This document shows positions 1,274-12,677 of a stretch of DNA of 17,604 nucleotides, piece by piece. Below the pieces are notes generated by a model. The model searched no databases. It was not told the DNA's origin and worked only from the letters and a program-made list of their open reading frames with translations. The stretch is taken from UHGV virus genome UHGV-0097368, one strand, 5' to 3'. Origin of the DNA: a virus. Each line of letters starts with the position of its first letter. The stretch's first letter is position 1. A program made the position numbers and the translations under genes.

Positions 1274-1897
1274 CTAACGTGTGACCGCATTCAAAATGTT
1301 GTCTGCGATTGACTCTTCCTTGTGGCATTGCACCACCAGAGCGTCATACAGCGGCTTAACAGTGCGTGACCAGGTGGGTTGGGTAAGGTTTGGGATTAGC
1401 ATCGTTACAGCGCGATATGCTGCGCTTGCTGGCATCCTTGAATAGCCGACGCCTTTGCATCTTCCGCACTCTTTCTCAACAACTCTCCCCCACAGCTCTG
1501 TTTTGGCAATATCAACCGCACGGCCTGTACCGTGACAATCTCTGCATCTTGCGCCCGGCGTCGCGGCACTACGGCAATAATCCGCATAAGCGAATGTTGC
1601 GAGCACTTGCAGTACCTTTGCCTTAGTATTTCCTTCAAGCTTTGCCACACCACGGTATTTCCCCGATACCTTGTGTGCAAATTGCATCAGATAGTCGATA
1701 GCCTTTTGTTTGTCGTTCTGGCTGAGTTCATGCTTACCGCAGAATGCAGCCATTCCGAATCCGGCTTGTGATTGCGCCATCCCCATAGCAGCCATCACAT
1801 CAGTACCGGAAAGAGAGTCAGAAGCCGTGGCCCGTGGTGAGTCGCTCATCATCGGGCTTTTTGGCGAGTGAAATTTAGCTACGCTTTCGAGTCTCAT
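1274..1897 (-). CDS. Q: Late-gene antiterminator Q
   Basis: 207 aa [32 protein letters not shown]..., lambda Q type. Confidence 0.95.
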
Positions 1898-4701: not shown

Positions 4702-5228
4702 GCAGCCCTCCTGACACCCTGCCCGATCGCCATCAATGCCGCTTTGGATACGGTAGTAAACATCCGTCGAGGACTGATGAATGGTCGCCAAATCAGCAGC
4801 ATGGAGCCTTTGCTGTTTCCCTTCTTCTCCAGCCCCGTCGATGGTTCGATAAAATTAATCCGTCCATCAGTGATAATGCGAACTTCGTCAACACTCTCCA
4901 GAGCCTTGCTGAACCATCCGACAGACATATCCTCTGGCACAAGCATCACTACCGGCTGTCGCTGTTGTATGCACTGCTCAGCGGCTTTTTCCACCCACGG
5001 CCTGATATTGCTGTACGGTGGGTTATTCCAGATTGCACCGTGGCTTATCCACTCAGAATTTAGCGCGTCGTCAGCCTCAGTTAGCCAGTGAGCGCACAGA
5101 GCATTTTTGTCGCTCGCTGCCGAATCCAGCCAGAATCCAAACTCAATATCCAGTGCATCAAAAAGCCAAAGCGGCGTTTGCCAGCAGTCTCTAACTTCTT
5201 TTGGTGTTTCTGATTTATGCTTAATCAT
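4698..5228 (-). CDS. Phage Dam-family DNA N6-adenine methyltransferase (orphan)
   Basis: 176 aa with CWQTP...FDALD...F.LD.AA and a NPPY catalytic motif typical of the phage N6-adenine MTase family; ATGA overlaps on both sides. Confidence 0.8.
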   Translation of the reverse strand: MIKHKSETPKEVRDCWQTPLWLFDALDIEFGFWLDSAASDKNALCAHWLTEADDALNSEWISHGAIWNNPPYSNIRPWVEKAAEQCIQQRQPVVMLVPEDMSVGWFSKALESVDEVRIITDGRINFIEPSTGLEKKGNSKGSMLLIWRPFISPRRMFTTVSKAALMAIGQGVRRAA

Positions 5229-5752
5229 TCAACCCTCGCATATTGTCCGTGATATTTGTTGATAGCCTCACTGGCAACCAAACCAGCAAGCTCAAGATCT
5301 TCATAGAACCCAAAATGCAACCGGCCAAAATCTGTGCGCACTTGAACGGCCCATTTATTTTTTTGCTTGTTCCATAAAACATTTTTTATTCCAGAACGGC
5401 TATTGCACTTAGTTTTCTGATTTCGGCTGTTTGCTATCCGGCTTGCCTCCCTAAGATTTTTTGGGGAATTGTCCAGCCTGTTTCCGTTAATATGGTCAAT
5501 ATTTTTCAATGGCATTCTTTTGTTGTGCAGCGCAAAAACAACTACGTGAACAAACATCTGAATGCCTGCAAAACACACCTGTCTATACCCAGATCCATTT
5601 ATCGATGTTTTAATTTCATCTCCGGCCCGGTGGCTGTGGTTGGGGTGTTTTAGCGAGTCCTTTTTGTACCTGACTGTATCTCCGTCTAAATACAGATAAT
5701 CCTCAATAAGCCGATACCTATCTGACGCTGGCGTATTTGATTTGATAGTCAT
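5225..5752 (-). CDS. HNH homing endonuclease with C-terminal AP2-like DNA-binding domain
   Basis: 175 aa from MTIKSNTPASDRY...; HNH_3-type motif HVVVFALHNKRMPLKNIDHINGNRLDNSPKNLREASRIANSRN; C-terminal WNKQKNKWAVQVRTDFGRLHFGFYEDLELAG is AP2-like. Visibly more AT-rich than the flanks. Confidence 0.8.
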   Translation of the reverse strand: MTIKSNTPASDRYRLIEDYLYLDGDTVRYKKDSLKHPNHSHRAGDEIKTSINGSGYRQVCFAGIQMFVHVVVFALHNKRMPLKNIDHINGNRLDNSPKNLREASRIANSRNQKTKCNSRSGIKNVLWNKQKNKWAVQVRTDFGRLHFGFYEDLELAGLVASEAINKYHGQYARVE

Positions 5753-6189
5753 GCAGCCCGATCTCCCCATCTCGCTTTCCACTCCAGAGCCAGTCTCGCT
5801 TCGTCTGACCACTTAACGCCACGCTCTGTACCGAATGCCTGTATAAGCTCTAATAGATCCGCAAATTCGCTTACACGCATCCTGCTGGTTGACTGGCCTA
5901 TTACCACAAAGCCATTCCCGGCAAGGTTAGGAACAACATCCTGCTGCTTTAATGCTGCGGTAAACACACACTTCCAGCTTTCTGCATCCAGCCAGCGACC
6001 ATGCCATTCAACCTGACGAGAGACGTCACCAAGGCAAGCCCAAAGCTTTCGATTCTGGTCTAAGCTGCGGTTGCGTTCCTGAATGGTTACTACGATTGGT
6101 TTGGTTGGGTCTGGAAGGATTTGCTGTACTGCGTGAATAGCGTTTTGCTGATGTGCTGGAGATCGAATTTCAAAGGTTAGTTTTTTCAT
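5749..6189 (-). CDS. ninB: NinB (Orf-family recombination mediator)
   Basis: 146 aa from MKKLTFEIRSPAHQQNAIHAVQQILPDPTKPIVVTIQERN..., lambda NinB type. Confidence 0.9.
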   Translation of the reverse strand: MKKLTFEIRSPAHQQNAIHAVQQILPDPTKPIVVTIQERNRSLDQNRKLWACLGDVSRQVEWHGRWLDAESWKCVFTAALKQQDVVPNLAGNGFVVIGQSTSRMRVSEFADLLELIQAFGTERGVKWSDEARLALEWKARWGDRAA

Positions 6190-6266: not shown

Positions 6267-8147
6267 TTAATACTCCGTCACGTTTTCCTGTCGCCACGCC
6301 TCGTCATATTCCGATTTCGGCATATTGGCGATGTAGCTATAAGGCGATCCTGATTCAAGTTGCAGGAACTGGTGCGATTGCTCGTCAAGGAACAACGGGA
6401 CACCACCTTCCCAACCTTCGCCGTTACGTTGTTTTTCAAGCATCAAAACAGATGCCGGAGATGCCAGTAGCTGTTCGTCCTTCTCTGACATCTTTTCACC
6501 ACTCTGAACTCTCTGTAACGCTCTCTCGCGAGCCTTGTTACGCCAGATGATAAAAAGGTTGTCTGTCAGGTCTGTTATCGCTCCAGAGCCTTTTACGTCC
6601 ATTTTCCCGGTTGGTTTTTCTTCGCTATCTCCTTTTCTGGAGTGAGTAACGAGAATGACGTGGGAGTTTGTTTTGTTTTTGAAGTCACAAATCGAGTCAA
6701 CAAATGCTTTCTGCCCGTTATAGTCATCGTCACCTATGCCGCATTTCATCAGGCTGTCGATGATGAATAACTGGATGCCGTATCGGCGGCGAGCGTAGTC
6801 GAATATTTCGATCAGCCTGTCGGCTTTCGCCGTTCCAGTCAGGCCAAACACCCAAAGTCTTTCGTCATAAAATTTAAATGCAGAGTCAATTTCCAGCACT
6901 GGCGGCATCTTGCAGCACGTCGCCTGACGGGTAAGGCGCTTAAGGAGAATACCAGGCTTCAGCTCAAGTGACGCGATGCACGTCTTCACACCCTGACGCA
7001 TTGCCTCAAGTGCCATATGCCCGACAACCTCCGTTTTTCCGTGACCGTTCACACCATTGACCAGCGTCAACTCGGCCTCACGAAACTGGAATTTATCTGC
7101 CAGAGATTCCCACGGTGGATTAAACAGATACTGCTGCTTGCCGTAGAAAGCGTTGATAGTGTCCTGGTAAAACTCTCGCGCGCTGTAGAGTTCTTCAGGA
7201 TCAAAGTAGGATGCCGTGCCGATGTACTGCCAGATTTCATCCTCGGTAACACCGTTCATCAGGCATTCGTTGATGTCTTTGTACGGCAGAGTAACAAGAC
7301 GGCAACGATGTTCACCGAGTCGGCTTGCGATTTCCCCTGCGGCTTCACGACCAACATCATCAACGTCCATCGAGATGAATATTTCCTCAAACCTGTCGAG
7401 GTTGTGATACTCAAACTCAATCCACTGTTGCTTAGCGCCTTTCCCGCCACCAAACGGCACGGATAACGCCGAGATGCCGTATTGCGCATAGCTCATACAA
7501 TCAATTTCGCCTTCGCAAAGTACAACCGCCCTCACGCCAGCGTCCAGAGCCTGCCATCCGAACAGACAAGGTTCGCAATCACCTTCTGCCATAATGACTT
7601 TCTTCCCGTCCGGGCGCTCAGTGCTGATTCGCTTGACCTGCAACAACTCACCATCGCGTTTGTACGGAAGCACCAGTGCATCAAGTTCTCGTTCTCCATT
7701 CCACACCTTGCCGCTGACAACCTCGTAGCGCTTTACGACTTCTGGCGATATGCCACGCGATTGCAGGTACTCAAGATGGGATTCTGTTCTGGTAACGTAG
7801 CGGGCGATTTTCTTGCGATCAGGTCTGGAGAATTTTTTCTCACGTTTGGCATCGAAATGGTGATCGTCATCCTTGATACCGAGAAATGCTTTCGCTTCCT
7901 GCATAGCCTGATGCAGGTTAATTCCACGACATGCCATCCACAAATCAAGCATGTCACCGCCGTCTCCCTCAGCGAAATCAGCCCATTTTTTCTTGCCGCT
8001 AAGGTTGACCTTAAGGCTGTTTCCCTTGTCACCATTGACGTTACCGGCAACCCACTCATGCCCCTCTTTCTTGCCGTTTGGCAACAGGTGCGGAGCCACC
8101 CTGTCAACCTGCGCCCAAAGCAGGTCGCTAAGTTCACTTGGCGTCAT
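6267..8147 (-). CDS. Bifunctional DNA primase-helicase (Toprim primase plus DnaB/gp4-like RecA-fold helicase)
   Basis: 626 aa; Toprim-like VVLCEGEIDCMSYAQYG; Walker A GVNGHGKTEVV and Walker B LFIIDSL; N-terminal zinc-ribbon-like segment without the usual cysteines. Confidence 0.85.
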   Translation of the reverse strand: MTPSELSDLLWAQVDRVAPHLLPNGKKEGHEWVAGNVNGDKGNSLKVNLSGKKKWADFAEGDGGDMLDLWMACRGINLHQAMQEAKAFLGIKDDDHHFDAKREKKFSRPDRKKIARYVTRTESHLEYLQSRGISPEVVKRYEVVSGKVWNGERELDALVLPYKRDGELLQVKRISTERPDGKKVIMAEGDCEPCLFGWQALDAGVRAVVLCEGEIDCMSYAQYGISALSVPFGGGKGAKQQWIEFEYHNLDRFEEIFISMDVDDVGREAAGEIASRLGEHRCRLVTLPYKDINECLMNGVTEDEIWQYIGTASYFDPEELYSAREFYQDTINAFYGKQQYLFNPPWESLADKFQFREAELTLVNGVNGHGKTEVVGHMALEAMRQGVKTCIASLELKPGILLKRLTRQATCCKMPPVLEIDSAFKFYDERLWVFGLTGTAKADRLIEIFDYARRRYGIQLFIIDSLMKCGIGDDDYNGQKAFVDSICDFKNKTNSHVILVTHSRKGDSEEKPTGKMDVKGSGAITDLTDNLFIIWRNKARERALQRVQSGEKMSEKDEQLLASPASVLMLEKQRNGEGWEGGVPLFLDEQSHQFLQLESGSPYSYIANMPKSEYDEAWRQENVTEY

Positions 8148-8251
8148 GATTCCCTCAGATTGAGATTTTTAAACCAGAAATCGACAAACGAAATACTTAA
8201 CCAGCCGTGGTTATAACCAGCAACCAGTAGCGATTTGATTTTTGATTTCAT
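8144..8251 (-). CDS. Small coupled ORF (35 aa) between the initiator and primase-helicase genes
   Basis: Hand translation MKSKIKSLLVAGYNHGWLSISFVDFWFKNLNLRES; starts 4 nt after the O-like stop with AGGTG upstream; its TGA overlaps the helicase ATG (ATGA). No homolog recognised. Confidence 0.3.
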   Translation of the reverse strand: MKSKIKSLLVAGYNHGWLSISFVDFWFKNLNLRES

Positions 8252-8254
8252 GGT

Positions 8255-9115
8255 TCACCTGTCGAAAAACACGTAGCCAGTTTTCGATACGGTGATTGCG
8301 GATGATGGTTTGGATTGTGGTTGAATAGTTTCTGGCTTCTCGTCGTTCCAGCGTTGACCGTTCAGGTAGCTCGATGGTAACAACCTGTCGAATCCGAACT
8401 GCTTACCATTCCTGCATGCGATGTCTTCTGCCAGCATCGTGGCAAACTCGCTTGCCGTACCCCTGGTAGTTTTACGCCATTCCCTGAACTGTGTTCTGAA
8501 TGCCGAAGCTGCGTTTTTCTTCCCGGCTTTCCGCATGCCTGCACACCAGAATATTTCCTCGAATGCCTTGTCGGTTTCTTCGTGACGGTCATGTGATTTT
8601 TCACACTCCGTCCGAACACTTTCGGACATAGTGTTTTTATTATTTCTTTTTTCTTTTGTAATAGTTTCTTTTGTGTGTCCCTGTTTTGGTGACAGCGCTG
8701 TCACCGTTTTGGTGACACTTTTTGTCACCAATGCAGTGACATTATCACCAGAGTAGTGACACCCTTCTATTTGCCATTCCTCGATGTTCTTGTTAGGCCC
8801 GATTTGCTGGCCTTCGCGAAGGATAACCTTCATCGCGATAAGCTCATTCTTGGCCTTGTTTACCTTCTGTCTTGGCAGCCTGGTAATTTGAGCTAACTGA
8901 CTATCAGAGATGCGATCCATCTTTTTACCGTAGCCGTATGTTTTACGGCATATGGCGTGGGCAACCTTGCTCTGATTTTTCGTTAAATCTGCGCCGATAA
9001 GCTCTTCATACAGGGCATTTGCAAGACGGGTATAACCATCTTCAACTTCTGCCACACGACGCTCCACAGGCCGTTGTGAAGGCCTTAAATGTGTTACGGT
9101 TGCAAGATTACTCAT
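8255..9115 (-). CDS. Replication initiator, lambda O-like N-terminal iteron-binding domain with a different C-terminal domain
   Basis: 286 aa; N-terminal [56 protein letters not shown] resembles the lambda O N-domain; iterons lie inside the gene; AAGGAG upstream of the ATG. Confidence 0.8.
8630..8764 (-). repeat. Replication origin: four palindromic iterons (8688-8764) followed by an AT-rich tract (8630-8686) inside the O-like gene
   Basis: Plus strand reads GGTGACAGCGCTGTCACC, GGTGACACTTTTTGTCACC, GCAGTGACATTATCACC, GTAGTGACACCC at roughly 23-bp spacing, next to TTTTATTATTTCTTTTTTCTTTTGTAATAGTTTCTTTTG. Confidence 0.75.
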
Positions 9116-9254
9116 GACCTTTCTCCTTCTGCATCAGCTTCACTTTTTCCAACTCAGCCCGGAATCGACCAGGCTGCTTGAAGCTGGACAGGAAGCGATC
9201 ACGTAGTATGTGTTTGTGAATTTTGTCCTGGTAAGGACTGAGTTGTTTTGTCAT
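9108..9254 (-). CDS. Small basic ORF (48 aa) between cII and the initiator gene
   Basis: Hand translation [48 protein letters not shown]; GGGAG 5 nt upstream of the ATG; overlaps the O-like start by 8 nt. No homolog recognised. Confidence 0.35.
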
Positions 9255-9288: not shown

Positions 9289-9567
9289 TTAGGCCTCGAA
9301 GAATTCGCCGTTCTTCGGGGCTTTTTCTTTTGTCAGCATTCTGGCTACTTGCTTAGCCAGTTCCGCCAACTCCTCGTCTTCAACACCCCATTCCAGCACA
9401 GCCAGAAGCATGGCCATCTTTGGGATAAAGCTGTCTTTCCATCGCGAAATTTGCGATTCATTAATCCCTAACGCGTCGGCAACCTTTCGCTGACCACGTA
9501 CAGCAATTCGATTCAGGATGTTGCTTGTAATTGCATTCGCTTTCTTGCGAGTACTTGTAAGTTGCAT
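9289..9567 (-). CDS. cII: cII-like transcriptional activator (divergent from lambda cII)
   Basis: 92 aa from [61 protein letters not shown]; helix-turn-helix SQISRWK and the LLAVLEWG segment are shared with lambda cII; N- and C-termini differ. Confidence 0.85.
9294..9331 (+). terminator. Intrinsic terminator antisense to the 3' end of cII (oop-RNA-type terminator)
   Basis: Plus strand CCTCGAAGAA-TTCGCCG-TTCTTCGGGG followed by CTTTTTCTTTT. Position and orientation match the lambda oop terminator; the promoter could not be placed confidently. Confidence 0.6.
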
Positions 9568-9577
9568 ATGTAAGTAT
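9545..9577 (+). promoter_or_regulatory. Candidate PRE (cII-activated promoter): TTGC-N6-TTGT plus AAGTAT -10
   Basis: TTGCGAGTACTTGT at 9545-9558 and AAGTAT at 9572-9577 have the same spacing as the lambda TTGC-N6-TTGC / -10 arrangement; a perfect TTGCTTGTAATTGC also lies at 9521-9534. Confidence 0.5.
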
Positions 9578-9646
9578 TTCCTTAGATAACAATTGATTGA
9601 ATGTATGCAAATAAATGCATACACCATAGGTGTGGTTTAATTTGAT

Positions 9647-9678
9647 GCCCTTTTTCAGGGCTGGAATGTGTAAGAGCG
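9647..9678 (-). promoter_or_regulatory. nutR (boxA CGCTCTTAC, boxB GCCCTGAAAAAGGGC)
   Basis: Reverse complement of 9647-9678 gives CGCTCTTACACATTCCAGCCCTGAAAAAGGGC just downstream of cro. Confidence 0.85.
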
Positions 9679-9685
9679 GGGTTAT

Positions 9686-9895
<210 letters not shown>

Positions 9896-9910
9896 TTAGT
9901 ACATGCAACC

Positions 9911-9980
9911 ATTATCACCGCTAGAGGTAAAATAGTCAACACGCACGGTGTTAGATATTTATCCCTTGCGGTGATAGATT
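9911..9980. promoter_or_regulatory. Right operator OR1-OR2-OR3 with divergent promoters PR (minus) and PRM (plus)
   Basis: OR1 9913-9929 TATCACCGCTAGAGGTA, OR2 9937-9953 CAACACGCACGGTGTTA, OR3 9960-9976 TATCCCTTGCGGTGATA. PR -10 (rc GATAAT) 9911-9916 and -35 (rc TTGACT) 9934-9939; PRM -35 TAGATA 9952-9957 and -10 TAGATT 9975-9980. Confidence 0.9.
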
Positions 9981-9983
9981 TAA

Positions 9984-10700
<717 letters not shown>

Positions 10701-10812
10701 TCGGCAAGGTGTTCTGGTCGGCGCATAGCTGATAACAATTGAGCAAGAATCTTCATCGAATTAGGGGAATTTTCACTCCCCTCAGAACATAACATAGTAA
10801 ATGGATTGAATT

Positions 10813-11652
10813 ATGAAGAATGGTTTTTATGCGACTTACCGCAGCAAAAATAAAGGGAAAGATAAGCGCTCAATAAACCTGTCTGTTTTCCTTAATTCTC
10901 TGCTGGCTGATAATCATCACCTGCAGGTTGGCTCCAATTATTTGTATATTCATAAAATCGATGGAAAAACTTTTCTCTTTACCAAAACAAATGACAAGAG
11001 TCTGGTTCAGAAGATAAATCGCTCTAAAGCTTCAGTTGAAGATATTAAGAACAGCCTCGCAGATGACGAATCATTGGGATTCCCATCTTTTTTGTTTGTT
11101 GAAGGCGACACCATTGGTTTTGCCAGAACTGTTTTCGGGCCGACCACATCCGATCTGACAGATTTTTTAATCGGGAAAGGAATGTCATTAAGCAGTGGAG
11201 AGCGCGTTCAGATAGAGCCACTGATGAGGGGAACCACCAAAGACGATGTTATGCATATGCATTTCATCGGCCGAACAACGGTGAAGGTAGAAGCCAAGCT
11301 ACCTGTATTTGGCGATATATTAAAGGTCTTAGGGGCAACAGATATTGAAGGGGAGCTTTTTGACTCATTGGATATAGTCATTAAGCCAAAATTTAAAAGG
11401 GATATAAAAAAGGTTGCCAAGGATATTATTTTTAACCCGTCACCTCAATTTTCAGACATTAGCCTGCGGGCAAAAGATGAGGCCGGAGATATTTTAACAG
11501 AACATTATCTATCAGAAAAAGGCCATCTCTCAGCGCCTCTGAACAAGGTCACCAATGCTGAGATAGCTGAAGAGATGGCATATTGCTACGCAAGAATGAA
11601 AAGTGATATACTGGAATGTTTTAAAAGGCAGGTGGGCAAAGTTAAGGATTAA
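10813..11652 (+). CDS. rexA: RexA (Rex exclusion system sensor component)
   Basis: 279 aa MKNGFYATYRSKNKGKDKRSINLSVFLNSLLADNHHLQ..., lambda RexA. Confidence 0.95.
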   Translation: MKNGFYATYRSKNKGKDKRSINLSVFLNSLLADNHHLQVGSNYLYIHKIDGKTFLFTKTNDKSLVQKINRSKASVEDIKNSLADDESLGFPSFLFVEGDTIGFARTVFGPTTSDLTDFLIGKGMSLSSGERVQIEPLMRGTTKDDVMHMHFIGRTTVKVEAKLPVFGDILKVLGATDIEGELFDSLDIVIKPKFKRDIKKVAKDIIFNPSPQFSDISLRAKDEAGDILTEHYLSEKGHLSAPLNKVTNAEIAEEMAYCYARMKSDILECFKRQVGKVKD

Positions 11653-11667
11653 TTATCAGGAGTAATT

Positions 11668-12102
11668 ATGCGGAACAGAATCATGCCTGGTGTTTACATA
11701 GTAATAATTCCTTACGTTATCGTAAGCATTTGCTATCTCCTTTTCCGCCACTACATTCCTGGTGTTTCTTTTTCAGCTCATAGAGATGGTCTTGGGGCGA
11801 CATTGTCATCATATGCAGGAACCATGATTGCAATCCTGATTGCTGCCTTGACGTTTCTAATCGGAAGCAGAACGCGCCGACTGGCCAAGATTAGAGAGTA
11901 TGGGTATATGACATCGGTAGTTATTGTCTATGCCCTTAGTTTTGTTGAGCTTGGAGCTTTGTTTTTCTGCGGGTTATTGCTTCTTTCCAGCATAAGCGGC
12001 TACATGATACCCACTATCGCCATCGGCATTGCCTCTGCATCGTTCATTCATATATGCATCCTTGTTTTCCAACTATATAATTTGACCAGAGAACAAGAAT
12101 AA
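11668..12102 (+). CDS. rexB: RexB (Rex exclusion system membrane component)
   Basis: 144 aa hydrophobic MRNRIMPGVYIVIIPYVIVSICYLLFRHY..., lambda RexB. Confidence 0.95.
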   Translation: MRNRIMPGVYIVIIPYVIVSICYLLFRHYIPGVSFSAHRDGLGATLSSYAGTMIAILIAALTFLIGSRTRRLAKIREYGYMTSVVIVYALSFVELGALFFCGLLLLSSISGYMIPTIAIGIASASFIHICILVFQLYNLTREQE

Positions 12103-12128
12103 CCCGGCCTCAGCGCCGGGTTTTCTTT
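12103..12128 (+). terminator. Intrinsic terminator after rexB (tIMM)
   Basis: CCCGGC-CTCAGC-GCCGGG followed by TTTTCTTT immediately after the rexB stop. Confidence 0.8.
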
Positions 12129-12275
12129 GCCTCACGATCGCCCCCAAAACACATAACCAATTGTATTTATTGAAAAATAAATAGATACAACTCACTAAAC
12201 ATAGCAATTCAGATCCCTCACCTACCAAACAATGCCCCCCTGCAAAAAATAAATTCATATAAAAAACATACAGAT

Positions 12276-12337
12276 AACCATCTGCGGTGATAAATTATCT
12301 CTGGCGGTGTTGACATAAATACCACTGGCGGTGATAC
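12276..12337 (+). promoter_or_regulatory. Left operator OL3-OL2-OL1 and promoter PL
   Basis: OL3 AACCATCTGCGGTGATA 12276-12292, OL2 TATCTCTGGCGGTGTTG 12296-12312, OL1 TACCACTGGCGGTGATA 12320-12336; -35 TTGACA 12310-12315; -10 GATACT 12332-12337. Confidence 0.92.
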
Positions 12338-12378
12338 TGAGCACATCAGCAGGACGCACTGACCACCATTGAAGGTGA

Positions 12379-12409
12379 GGTTCTTAAAAATTAAGCCCTG
12401 AAGAAGGGC
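12379..12409 (+). promoter_or_regulatory. nutL (boxB GCCCTGAAGAAGGGC; boxA position reads GGTTCTTAAAAATTAA)
   Basis: boxB hairpin at 12395-12409 is canonical; the preceding boxA-position sequence deviates from the CGCTCTT(T)A consensus at two bases. Confidence 0.8.
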
Positions 12410-12677
12410 AGCATTCAAAGCAGAAGGCTTTGGGGTGTGGTGAAGCCAGCTAGTCACTGGCAAGTGCTTACCTACTGTTGAGCGGTGAAGCGCTCCCAAC
12501 GCTAGCAATAGCGTGGACGAGATGGGGAGCCGCGGGCGATAAGGCCGCCATAACGCGCACGTTGTCGCATGGAAAAATCGCTGGGGTGCCGGTTATCCCC
12601 CTCCGAATGAGACTCAACAAGCTGGAGCTAGACTACCAGCCACCACACCACCAAAGCTAACTGACAGGAGAATCCAG

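Follow-up and report, generated by a model that had tools for sequence, protein, structure and literature searches.

The recognition sequence of the P22 C1 and lambda CII activators is TTGC-N6-TTGC/T (PMC2629481; PMC10345575), the second source citing Ho et al., 1992. In lambda, the establishment promoter PRE carries a perfect box, TTGCGTTTGTTTGC, whose repeats lie 10 bp apart on either side of the -35 region, within sequence whose other strand encodes the first residues of the activator; 13 bp separate the box from the -10 hexamer AAGTAT. In P22, the site annotated 'P22 C1 protein, activation of PRE' (TTGCGAGTGCTTGT) has the form TTGC-N6-TTGT and covers codons 4-8 of c1, within the gene order cro-nutR-c1-orf48-replication, with oop. 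The cII modules of HK620, HK630 and Sf6 lie in different settings, as cro/nutR upstream is non-lambda in HK620 and HK630, while Sf6 has 434-type operators and a lambda-like nutR/tR1. Finally, HK542, HK544, HK244 and CL707 (EF120455-EF120459) are wild lambda-immunity phages (Degnan et al., 2007, Mol Microbiol 64:232), and the HK542 record, like that of Sf6, carries annotations for pRE with its -10 and -35 elements and for the CII site.

We analysed a stretch of 17,604 nucleotides from the virus genome UHGV-0097368 (hereafter the window), which is oriented opposite to the standard lambda map; all coordinates refer to its + strand (Table 1). cI, rexA and rexB lie on the + strand, and cro, cII and the replication genes on the - strand. 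By blastn, the immunity block running from nutR/tR1 through nutL corresponds to lambda 38362..35489, with 99.79% identity over 2875 bp, and the alignment to lambda agreed. The left edge of this block is exactly the G of the cII ATG, and the two sequences diverge from cII codon 2. A reading of the DNA made from the sequence alone (the sequence-only reading) had described everything from the cII start through cro, OR and cI, including the -10 AAGTAT, as lambda-type and the cII coding sequence as a divergent homolog, and the alignments bear out this description: cII is 56% identical to its lambda counterpart in nucleotides and 54% in amino acids. Within 9565-10000 there is one mismatch to lambda, located in OR1; OR2, OR3 and OL1-3 match lambda exactly. 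The OR1 site at 9913-9929 reads TACCTCTAGCGGTGATA, where lambda has TACCTCTGGCGGTGATA, with T at base 9922 (+ strand), position 8 of the non-consensus half. HK542 has this G-to-A variant too, as do 4 of 13 lambda-type viral contigs, which marks it as a natural polymorphism rather than a laboratory vir mutation.

The cII allele belongs to the P22 C1/HK620 type. It is 97.5% identical to HK620 cII in nucleotides and 84% identical to P22 C1 in amino acids, and searches of phage genomes (tblastn/megablast) returned proteins of 97-99% identity in HK620, HK630, Sf6, HK542, HK544, HK446, mEpX2 and others. The product is a full-length member of Phage_CII (PF05269; E=3.4e-42, 143 bits against a cut-off of 21.3, residues 1-91 of the 91 profile positions), and phmmer matched it to the lambda CII structures 1xwr and 1zs4 in the PDB (E=4e-24). 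Conservation of the recognition helix, also proposed in the sequence-only reading, was seen in the BLASTP alignment to lambda CII, which pairs ESQISRWK with KSQISRWK, and in the family alignment. By homology to lambda CII (1zs4 complex) and P22 C1, the protein would be a tetramer that binds TTGC direct repeats and activates transcription. Its gene is the first one past cro/nutR/tR1 in the PR operon and is followed by replication genes. The match to HK620 and HK630 spans 9584 to 9108 (98.5% identity), taking in cII and the DUF2740 ORF, and ends at the replication initiator gene. At the 3′ end of cII there is an oop-type antisense terminator; the counterpart of this stem-loop is annotated 'terminator oop' in P22, and the oop antisense RNA module moves with this cII allele.

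The PRE of the window overlaps the 5′ end of cII on the opposite strand and points toward cro and cI, the latter lying downstream on the + strand. We take the lambda PRE start to be 38343, and by analogy with lambda the start in the window would lie at about 9584. As the sequence-only reading had stated, TTGC-N6-TTGT (TTGCGAGTACTTGT) occupies the place of the perfect lambda box, in exact register with TTGCGTTTGTTTGC. The -10 AAGTAT begins 13 bp past this proximal box, which is the spacing of lambda PRE, PaQ and PI, and both the -10 and the transcribed leader are identical to those of lambda. Such boxes are expected in the window by chance at about the numbers observed: in shuffled sequences TTGC-N6-TTGC is expected 1.6 times (2 found) and TTGC-N6-TTGT 1.05 times (1 found). 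Counts were therefore discarded as a measure of significance, which we based on the register with lambda PRE and on the conservation in homologs. In HK542, TTGCGAGTACTTGT bears the label 'CII binding site at pRE', and the records of P22, HK620 and Sf6 mark it as the C1/CII site; the same TTGC-N6-TTGT box sequence is found exactly in HK620, HK140, an Stx2c phage, Sf6, HK542 and Dewey. It is the native site of this cII lineage and has already been described.

The lambda-type sequence and the cII module meet in a block of 20 bp, TAAGGAAATACTTACATATG, which includes the ATG of cII with its Shine-Dalgarno sequence as well as the PRE -10, and which by analogy with lambda would span about -19 to +1 of PRE. 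An alignment of the window, lambda, HK542, HK620 and P22 revealed that the block is common to lambda-type and HK620-type phages. We examined 80 viral contigs carrying the allele, the closest relatives with at least 97% identity. Upstream of the ATG, 30 of the 80 have a lambda-type nutR/tR1 and about 50 an HK620-type sequence, and both kinds end in TAAGGAAATACTTACATATG; no HK620-type phage without the block was found among these 80 loci. Since both upstream contexts end in the same 20 bp, the exchange fell inside a shared boundary sequence. The sequence-only reading had placed a recombination breakpoint within the overlap of PRE and cII, and the alignment indeed puts the boundary at the ATG, between the -10 and the boxes, in a region that is recombinant relative to lambda. 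The arrangement at this junction is known, annotated and widespread, and it is also old and common. HK542, HK544, HK244 and CL707 are identical to the window across the junction (lambda-type cro/nutR/tR1, the 20-bp block and an HK620-type cII with both boxes described here), and in HK542 the exact sequence is deposited, with the PRE elements annotated on the same bases. These phages differ from the window only elsewhere, for example in its replication module with a Phage_rep_O-domain protein and a Toprim/DnaB-like protein. The same junction is present in Sf6 and Dewey. Besides a cII 97-99% identical to that of the window, the modules of HK620, HK630 and Sf6 contain the DUF2740 ORF, the shared 20-bp block and the two boxes. 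Using a 301-bp probe across the joint (at least 80% coverage), we detected it in 80 of 5426 complete E. coli genomes, with 100% identity in many of them. Beyond the joint, several E. coli chromosomes and phages including Sf101, mEp043 and HK544 share the broader arrangement of genes seen in the window.

Table 1. Features located in the window (coordinates on the + strand).
Feature	Position	Strand	Basis
Q ORF	1274..1897	-	
Lambda-type PaQ CII box, TTGCGAGCACTTGC, inside Q (antisense)	1597..1610	+	identical to lambda 44173-44186
PaQ -10, TAGTAT	1624-1629	+	13 bp after PaQ box
Toprim + DnaB-like primase-helicase, 626 aa	6267..8147	-	
Phage_rep_O-domain protein, 286 aa	8255..9115	-	
DUF2740 small ORF (P22 orf48 / HK620 hkaW homolog), part of the cII module	9108..9254	-	Pfam, E=9e-29
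cII, P22 C1 / HK620-type allele, 92 aa (ATG = 9567-9565)	9289..9567	-	ORF and translation, Pfam, homology
oop-type terminator stem-loop, antisense to cII 3′ end	9291..9323	+	terminator scan: 14-pair stem and T run
Distal box of perfect form, TTGCTTGTAATTGC, at about -63..-50 of PRE; a candidate for a second CII site	9521..9534	+	pattern match
PRE-proximal CII box, TTGCGAGTACTTGT (TTGC-N6-TTGT), about -39..-26 of PRE, cII codons 4-8	9545..9558	+	pattern match, lambda register
Shared 20-bp block, TAAGGAAATACTTACATATG; likely crossover zone	9565..9584	-	multi-phage alignment
Lambda-type immunity block: nutR/tR1, cro, OR, cI, rexA, rexB, OL, nutL	9565..12439	.	blastn
PRE -10 hexamer, AAGTAT	9572..9577	+	identical to lambda; annotated pRE -10 in HK542
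cro	9686..9886	-	
cI	9987..10700	+	

A second box, with the perfect form TTGC-N6-TTGC, lies 24 bp deeper into cII than the proximal one, as the sequence-only reading had also noticed. In helical phase the two boxes differ by about 100 degrees. The distal box is unmarked in the GenBank records of HK542, P22, HK620 and Sf6, and full-text literature searches gave no mention of a second box. Neither box varies among the 80 closest viral contigs, and therefore we tested conservation on more divergent sequences. cII loci were collected from GTDB species representatives, from viral contigs queried with three divergent alleles and from metagenome contigs, yielding 445 usable loci with 205 unique 240-nt starts. 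A perfect distal box was present at the same offset in two clades, one of the P22/HK620 type (clade 1) and one of the MDTTTTRNKARAIESK type (clade 2), and in clade 2 it sits among spacer and flanking residues that differ from those of clade 1. The box was lost only through amino-acid replacements, namely N16S in P22, where it reads CTGC..TTGC (CTGCTGGTAATTGC), and A12E in one Erwinia and one Rahnella lineage, and because of these losses it must be dispensable. Among the 205 unique starts, several lineages show a switch between C and T at the final position of the proximal box, coupled to Ala or Thr at codon 4. A 1993 paper in PNAS is said to describe a single base change that alters C1/CII as well as its site. 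Strict co-variation of a proximal TTGT with a perfect distal box was considered and rejected on the wider sampling: alleles with a perfect proximal box may also carry the distal one (L177, L252/256, L258-260), and there are TTGT alleles without it (L128, L143, L261, L263/270/272, L265/276/293, P22, L100). The idea of compensation thus fails, as the distal box accompanies either a TTGT or a TTGC proximal box.

To follow the codons underlying the boxes, changes were counted by parsimony on neighbour-joining trees of the two clades (124 unique sequences). Four codons had no third-position change in either clade: codon 4 (xCA) and Arg7 (CGC) in the proximal box, both invariant in all 124 homologs, and Ala12 (GCA) and Ser15 (AGC) in the distal box. 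At other degenerate codons with a conserved amino acid, clade 1 had 2-12 changes and clade 2 mostly 2-4; the neighbouring Ile13, Glu14 and Leu17 of clade 2 likewise had none at the third position. Elsewhere in the cII family Ser15 is encoded by AGT, TCC, TCG or TCA. We also ranked the 104 possible 4-N6-4 frames in the first 120 nt of the 124 combined sequences. The distal frame was the most conserved of all, with two changes, both of them amino-acid replacements, and the proximal frame ranked second with four changes, against 25-30 for the median frame. For the distal codons a rank-based p of about 0.006-0.02 was computed by hand, a value to be read as post hoc, obtained after the box had been noticed, and in the light of phage recombination, which makes lineages less independent.

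How does the joint bear on the establishment of lysogeny? The sequence-only reading had suggested that the breakpoint changed the way in which establishment is activated. Recombination would then have built a hybrid PRE from the lambda -10 and a foreign, weakened TTGT box, with activation altered, for example by a shift to the perfect box upstream. It is true that the lambda-identical sequence stops between the -10 and the boxes, and that the proximal box is one base off the lambda consensus with a perfect box upstream of it. However, phages with a non-lambda cro/nutR (HK620, HK140 and an Stx2c phage) have this very combination of -10, spacer and boxes, and the window is identical over PRE -63..+1 to these three as well as to HK542 and Dewey. 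TTGT is native and annotated in P22 and lies within the accepted recognition sequence, the T/C toggle with Thr/Ala at codon 4 has arisen several times in the family, and CGAGTA stands where the distal box would need a -10. Since 9565-9584 is identical in lambda-type and HK620-type contexts, PRE -63..+1 of the window is simply HK620-type and no chimera, and the suggested change in activation finds no support; we regard it as very unlikely. The transcribed leader alone is of lambda type. Scarcely credible is a further possibility, a CII-dependent tandem promoter ('PRE2') served by the distal box and starting about 24 bp upstream of PRE. The box is perfect and has the orientation of PRE, but in lambda PRE, PaQ and PI alike a distance of exactly 13 bp separates the box from a -10-like hexamer whose second base is A and whose sixth is T, whereas at this distance from the distal box there is CGAGTA in the window and CGAGTG, CGTGTG, CGGGTA or CGGGTG in its relatives. 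A promoter scan likewise reported nothing at the -10 position of the distal box. With no -10 at the canonical 13-bp distance in the window or its relatives, the distal box is not a second promoter. What comparison with the known phages points to instead, with high probability, is the ordinary repressor-establishment PRE of a mosaic lambdoid prophage, whose activator and site were inherited together; because they were, establishment would not have been rewired.

The selection suggested for the distal box is a separate matter and has nothing to do with the recombination event. Is the box a site at all, or a by-product of coding for Ala-Ile-x-Ser-Asn/Lys and of shared ancestry, unbound in vivo and without function? 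The latter is a serious possibility, to which we give rather less than an even chance. Chance alone would place 1.6 such boxes in the window, and all that this one requires is GCA-A and AGC-AA, over residues among which Ile13 and Ser15 are invariant in the family. Most cII subfamilies do without the box, P22 has lost it and lambda does not have it; it is also out of phase on the helix with the proximal box, and no -10 follows it. Against a by-product stands the codon usage: GCA and AGC are found in every unique sequence whose protein permits the box (122 were tallied), although Ser15 takes four other codons in the family and neighbouring Ala, Arg, Gly, Leu and Thr codons underwent 2-12 independent synonymous changes on the same trees. 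So do the first rank of the distal frame among 104, with amino-acid replacements as its only changes, and the recurrence of the signal in two clades with different spacers and flanks. These patterns lead us to propose, tentatively and at only a little under an even chance, that cII genes of the P22/HK620 type and of the MDTTTTRNKARAIESK clade may have, about 24 bp upstream of the PRE box, another CII box that is under selection.

For the joint itself, the reading as an ordinary PRE takes the following form. A lambda immunity block, extending from upstream of N through cro/nutR, is joined within TAAGGAAATACTTACATATG to a replication-side module that starts with a cII of the P22 C1/HK620 type. 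The promoter sequence upstream of the ATG travels with this cII allele in its native arrangement, with TTGC-N6-TTGT flanking the -35 region and the perfect box 24 bp upstream. A CII tetramer made from PR transcripts would, by homology to lambda CII and P22 C1, bind the proximal box through the SQISRWK helix and switch on leftward transcription that starts at about 9584 and runs through cro, in antisense, into cI; this CII would presumably also read the lambda-type PaQ box in Q. That this allele is active at PRE is to be expected from P22 and lambda. P22 itself combines its 84% identical activator with a different -10 region, GAACAT, and other upstream sequence.

The joint is thus a well-documented mosaic joint of lambdoid phages, and that the CII/C1 recognition sequence tolerates C or T at its last base is likewise known. 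When modules are exchanged at a short conserved boundary, the activator stays with its own binding site, and such joints are therefore viable and frequent. The conserved distal box is the sole element that could add to the lambda paradigm. If CII does bind it, a very common cII lineage would have a two-site establishment promoter, an architecture that lambda is without, and the box could affect how sharply the CII concentration is turned into the decision between lysis and lysogeny. Two CII tetramers at the start of cII could sharpen or strengthen the activation of PRE, perhaps offsetting the frequent proximal TTGT, or alternatively they could impede transcription from PR into cII and the genes for replication; that the two tetramers cooperate is a conjecture. 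A selected distal box would make this a tandem-site variant of the classical lambda PRE, present, counting the lambda-immunity joint alone, in about 80 of the 5426 complete E. coli genomes.

The collection of cII loci also gave several observations on the family as a whole. The cII of mEp213 (locus L087, 401-679) is itself recombinant: residues 1-60 are those of lambda CII, with the lambda PRE box, and residues 61-92 are identical to the HK620-type allele of the window at 30 of 31 positions. Exchange therefore happens inside cII too, near a conserved 10-residue segment. In the subfamily with ..TTTRNKxQARKIESW.. (L119, L126, L127, L135, L136, L139, L268, L284 and others) there is no TTGC-N6-TTGY at the usual site, and the same place holds TTTCG-N5-TTGT/C, for example GTTTCGTGTCGTTGT, a hint that the recognition sequence has shifted or that the first box is weaker. 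A group of loci from GTDB species representatives (L145, L148, L150-L156, L158, L160, L161 and L164) have a cII start/PRE segment equal to that of lambda. Their assemblies carry labels such as Shewanella, Pseudomonas, Bradyrhizobium, Kitasatospora, Oceanobacillus and Enterococcus, among others, and the contigs are often about 48 kb long or are low-coverage fragments; these loci are almost certainly contamination of the assemblies with lambda control DNA.

The PaQ box is the only TTGC-N6-TTGC in the window besides the distal box. As this lambda-type PaQ is intact, the prophage pairs a CII of the P22/HK620 type with a lambda-type PaQ. At 24 bp upstream of this PaQ there is no second box. Between the PaQ repeats, the spacer GAGCAC is similar to GAGTAC of the window's PRE, and the distal-box spacer TTGTAA resembles GTGTAA of lambda PI; both likenesses are probably coincidence.

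The replication module at 6267-9115 (- strand) is not lambda O/P, and the same arrangement is found in Sf101, mEp043 and several E. coli prophages. Further along, a 195-aa ORF at 5225-5812 (- strand) is located between a ninB-like gene and the next nin-region ORF, where the homology to lambda is interrupted (4709 to 5749). Annotations for the matching region in E. coli include 'NUMOD4 motif-containing HNH endonuclease', and the ORF is probably a homing-endonuclease insertion.
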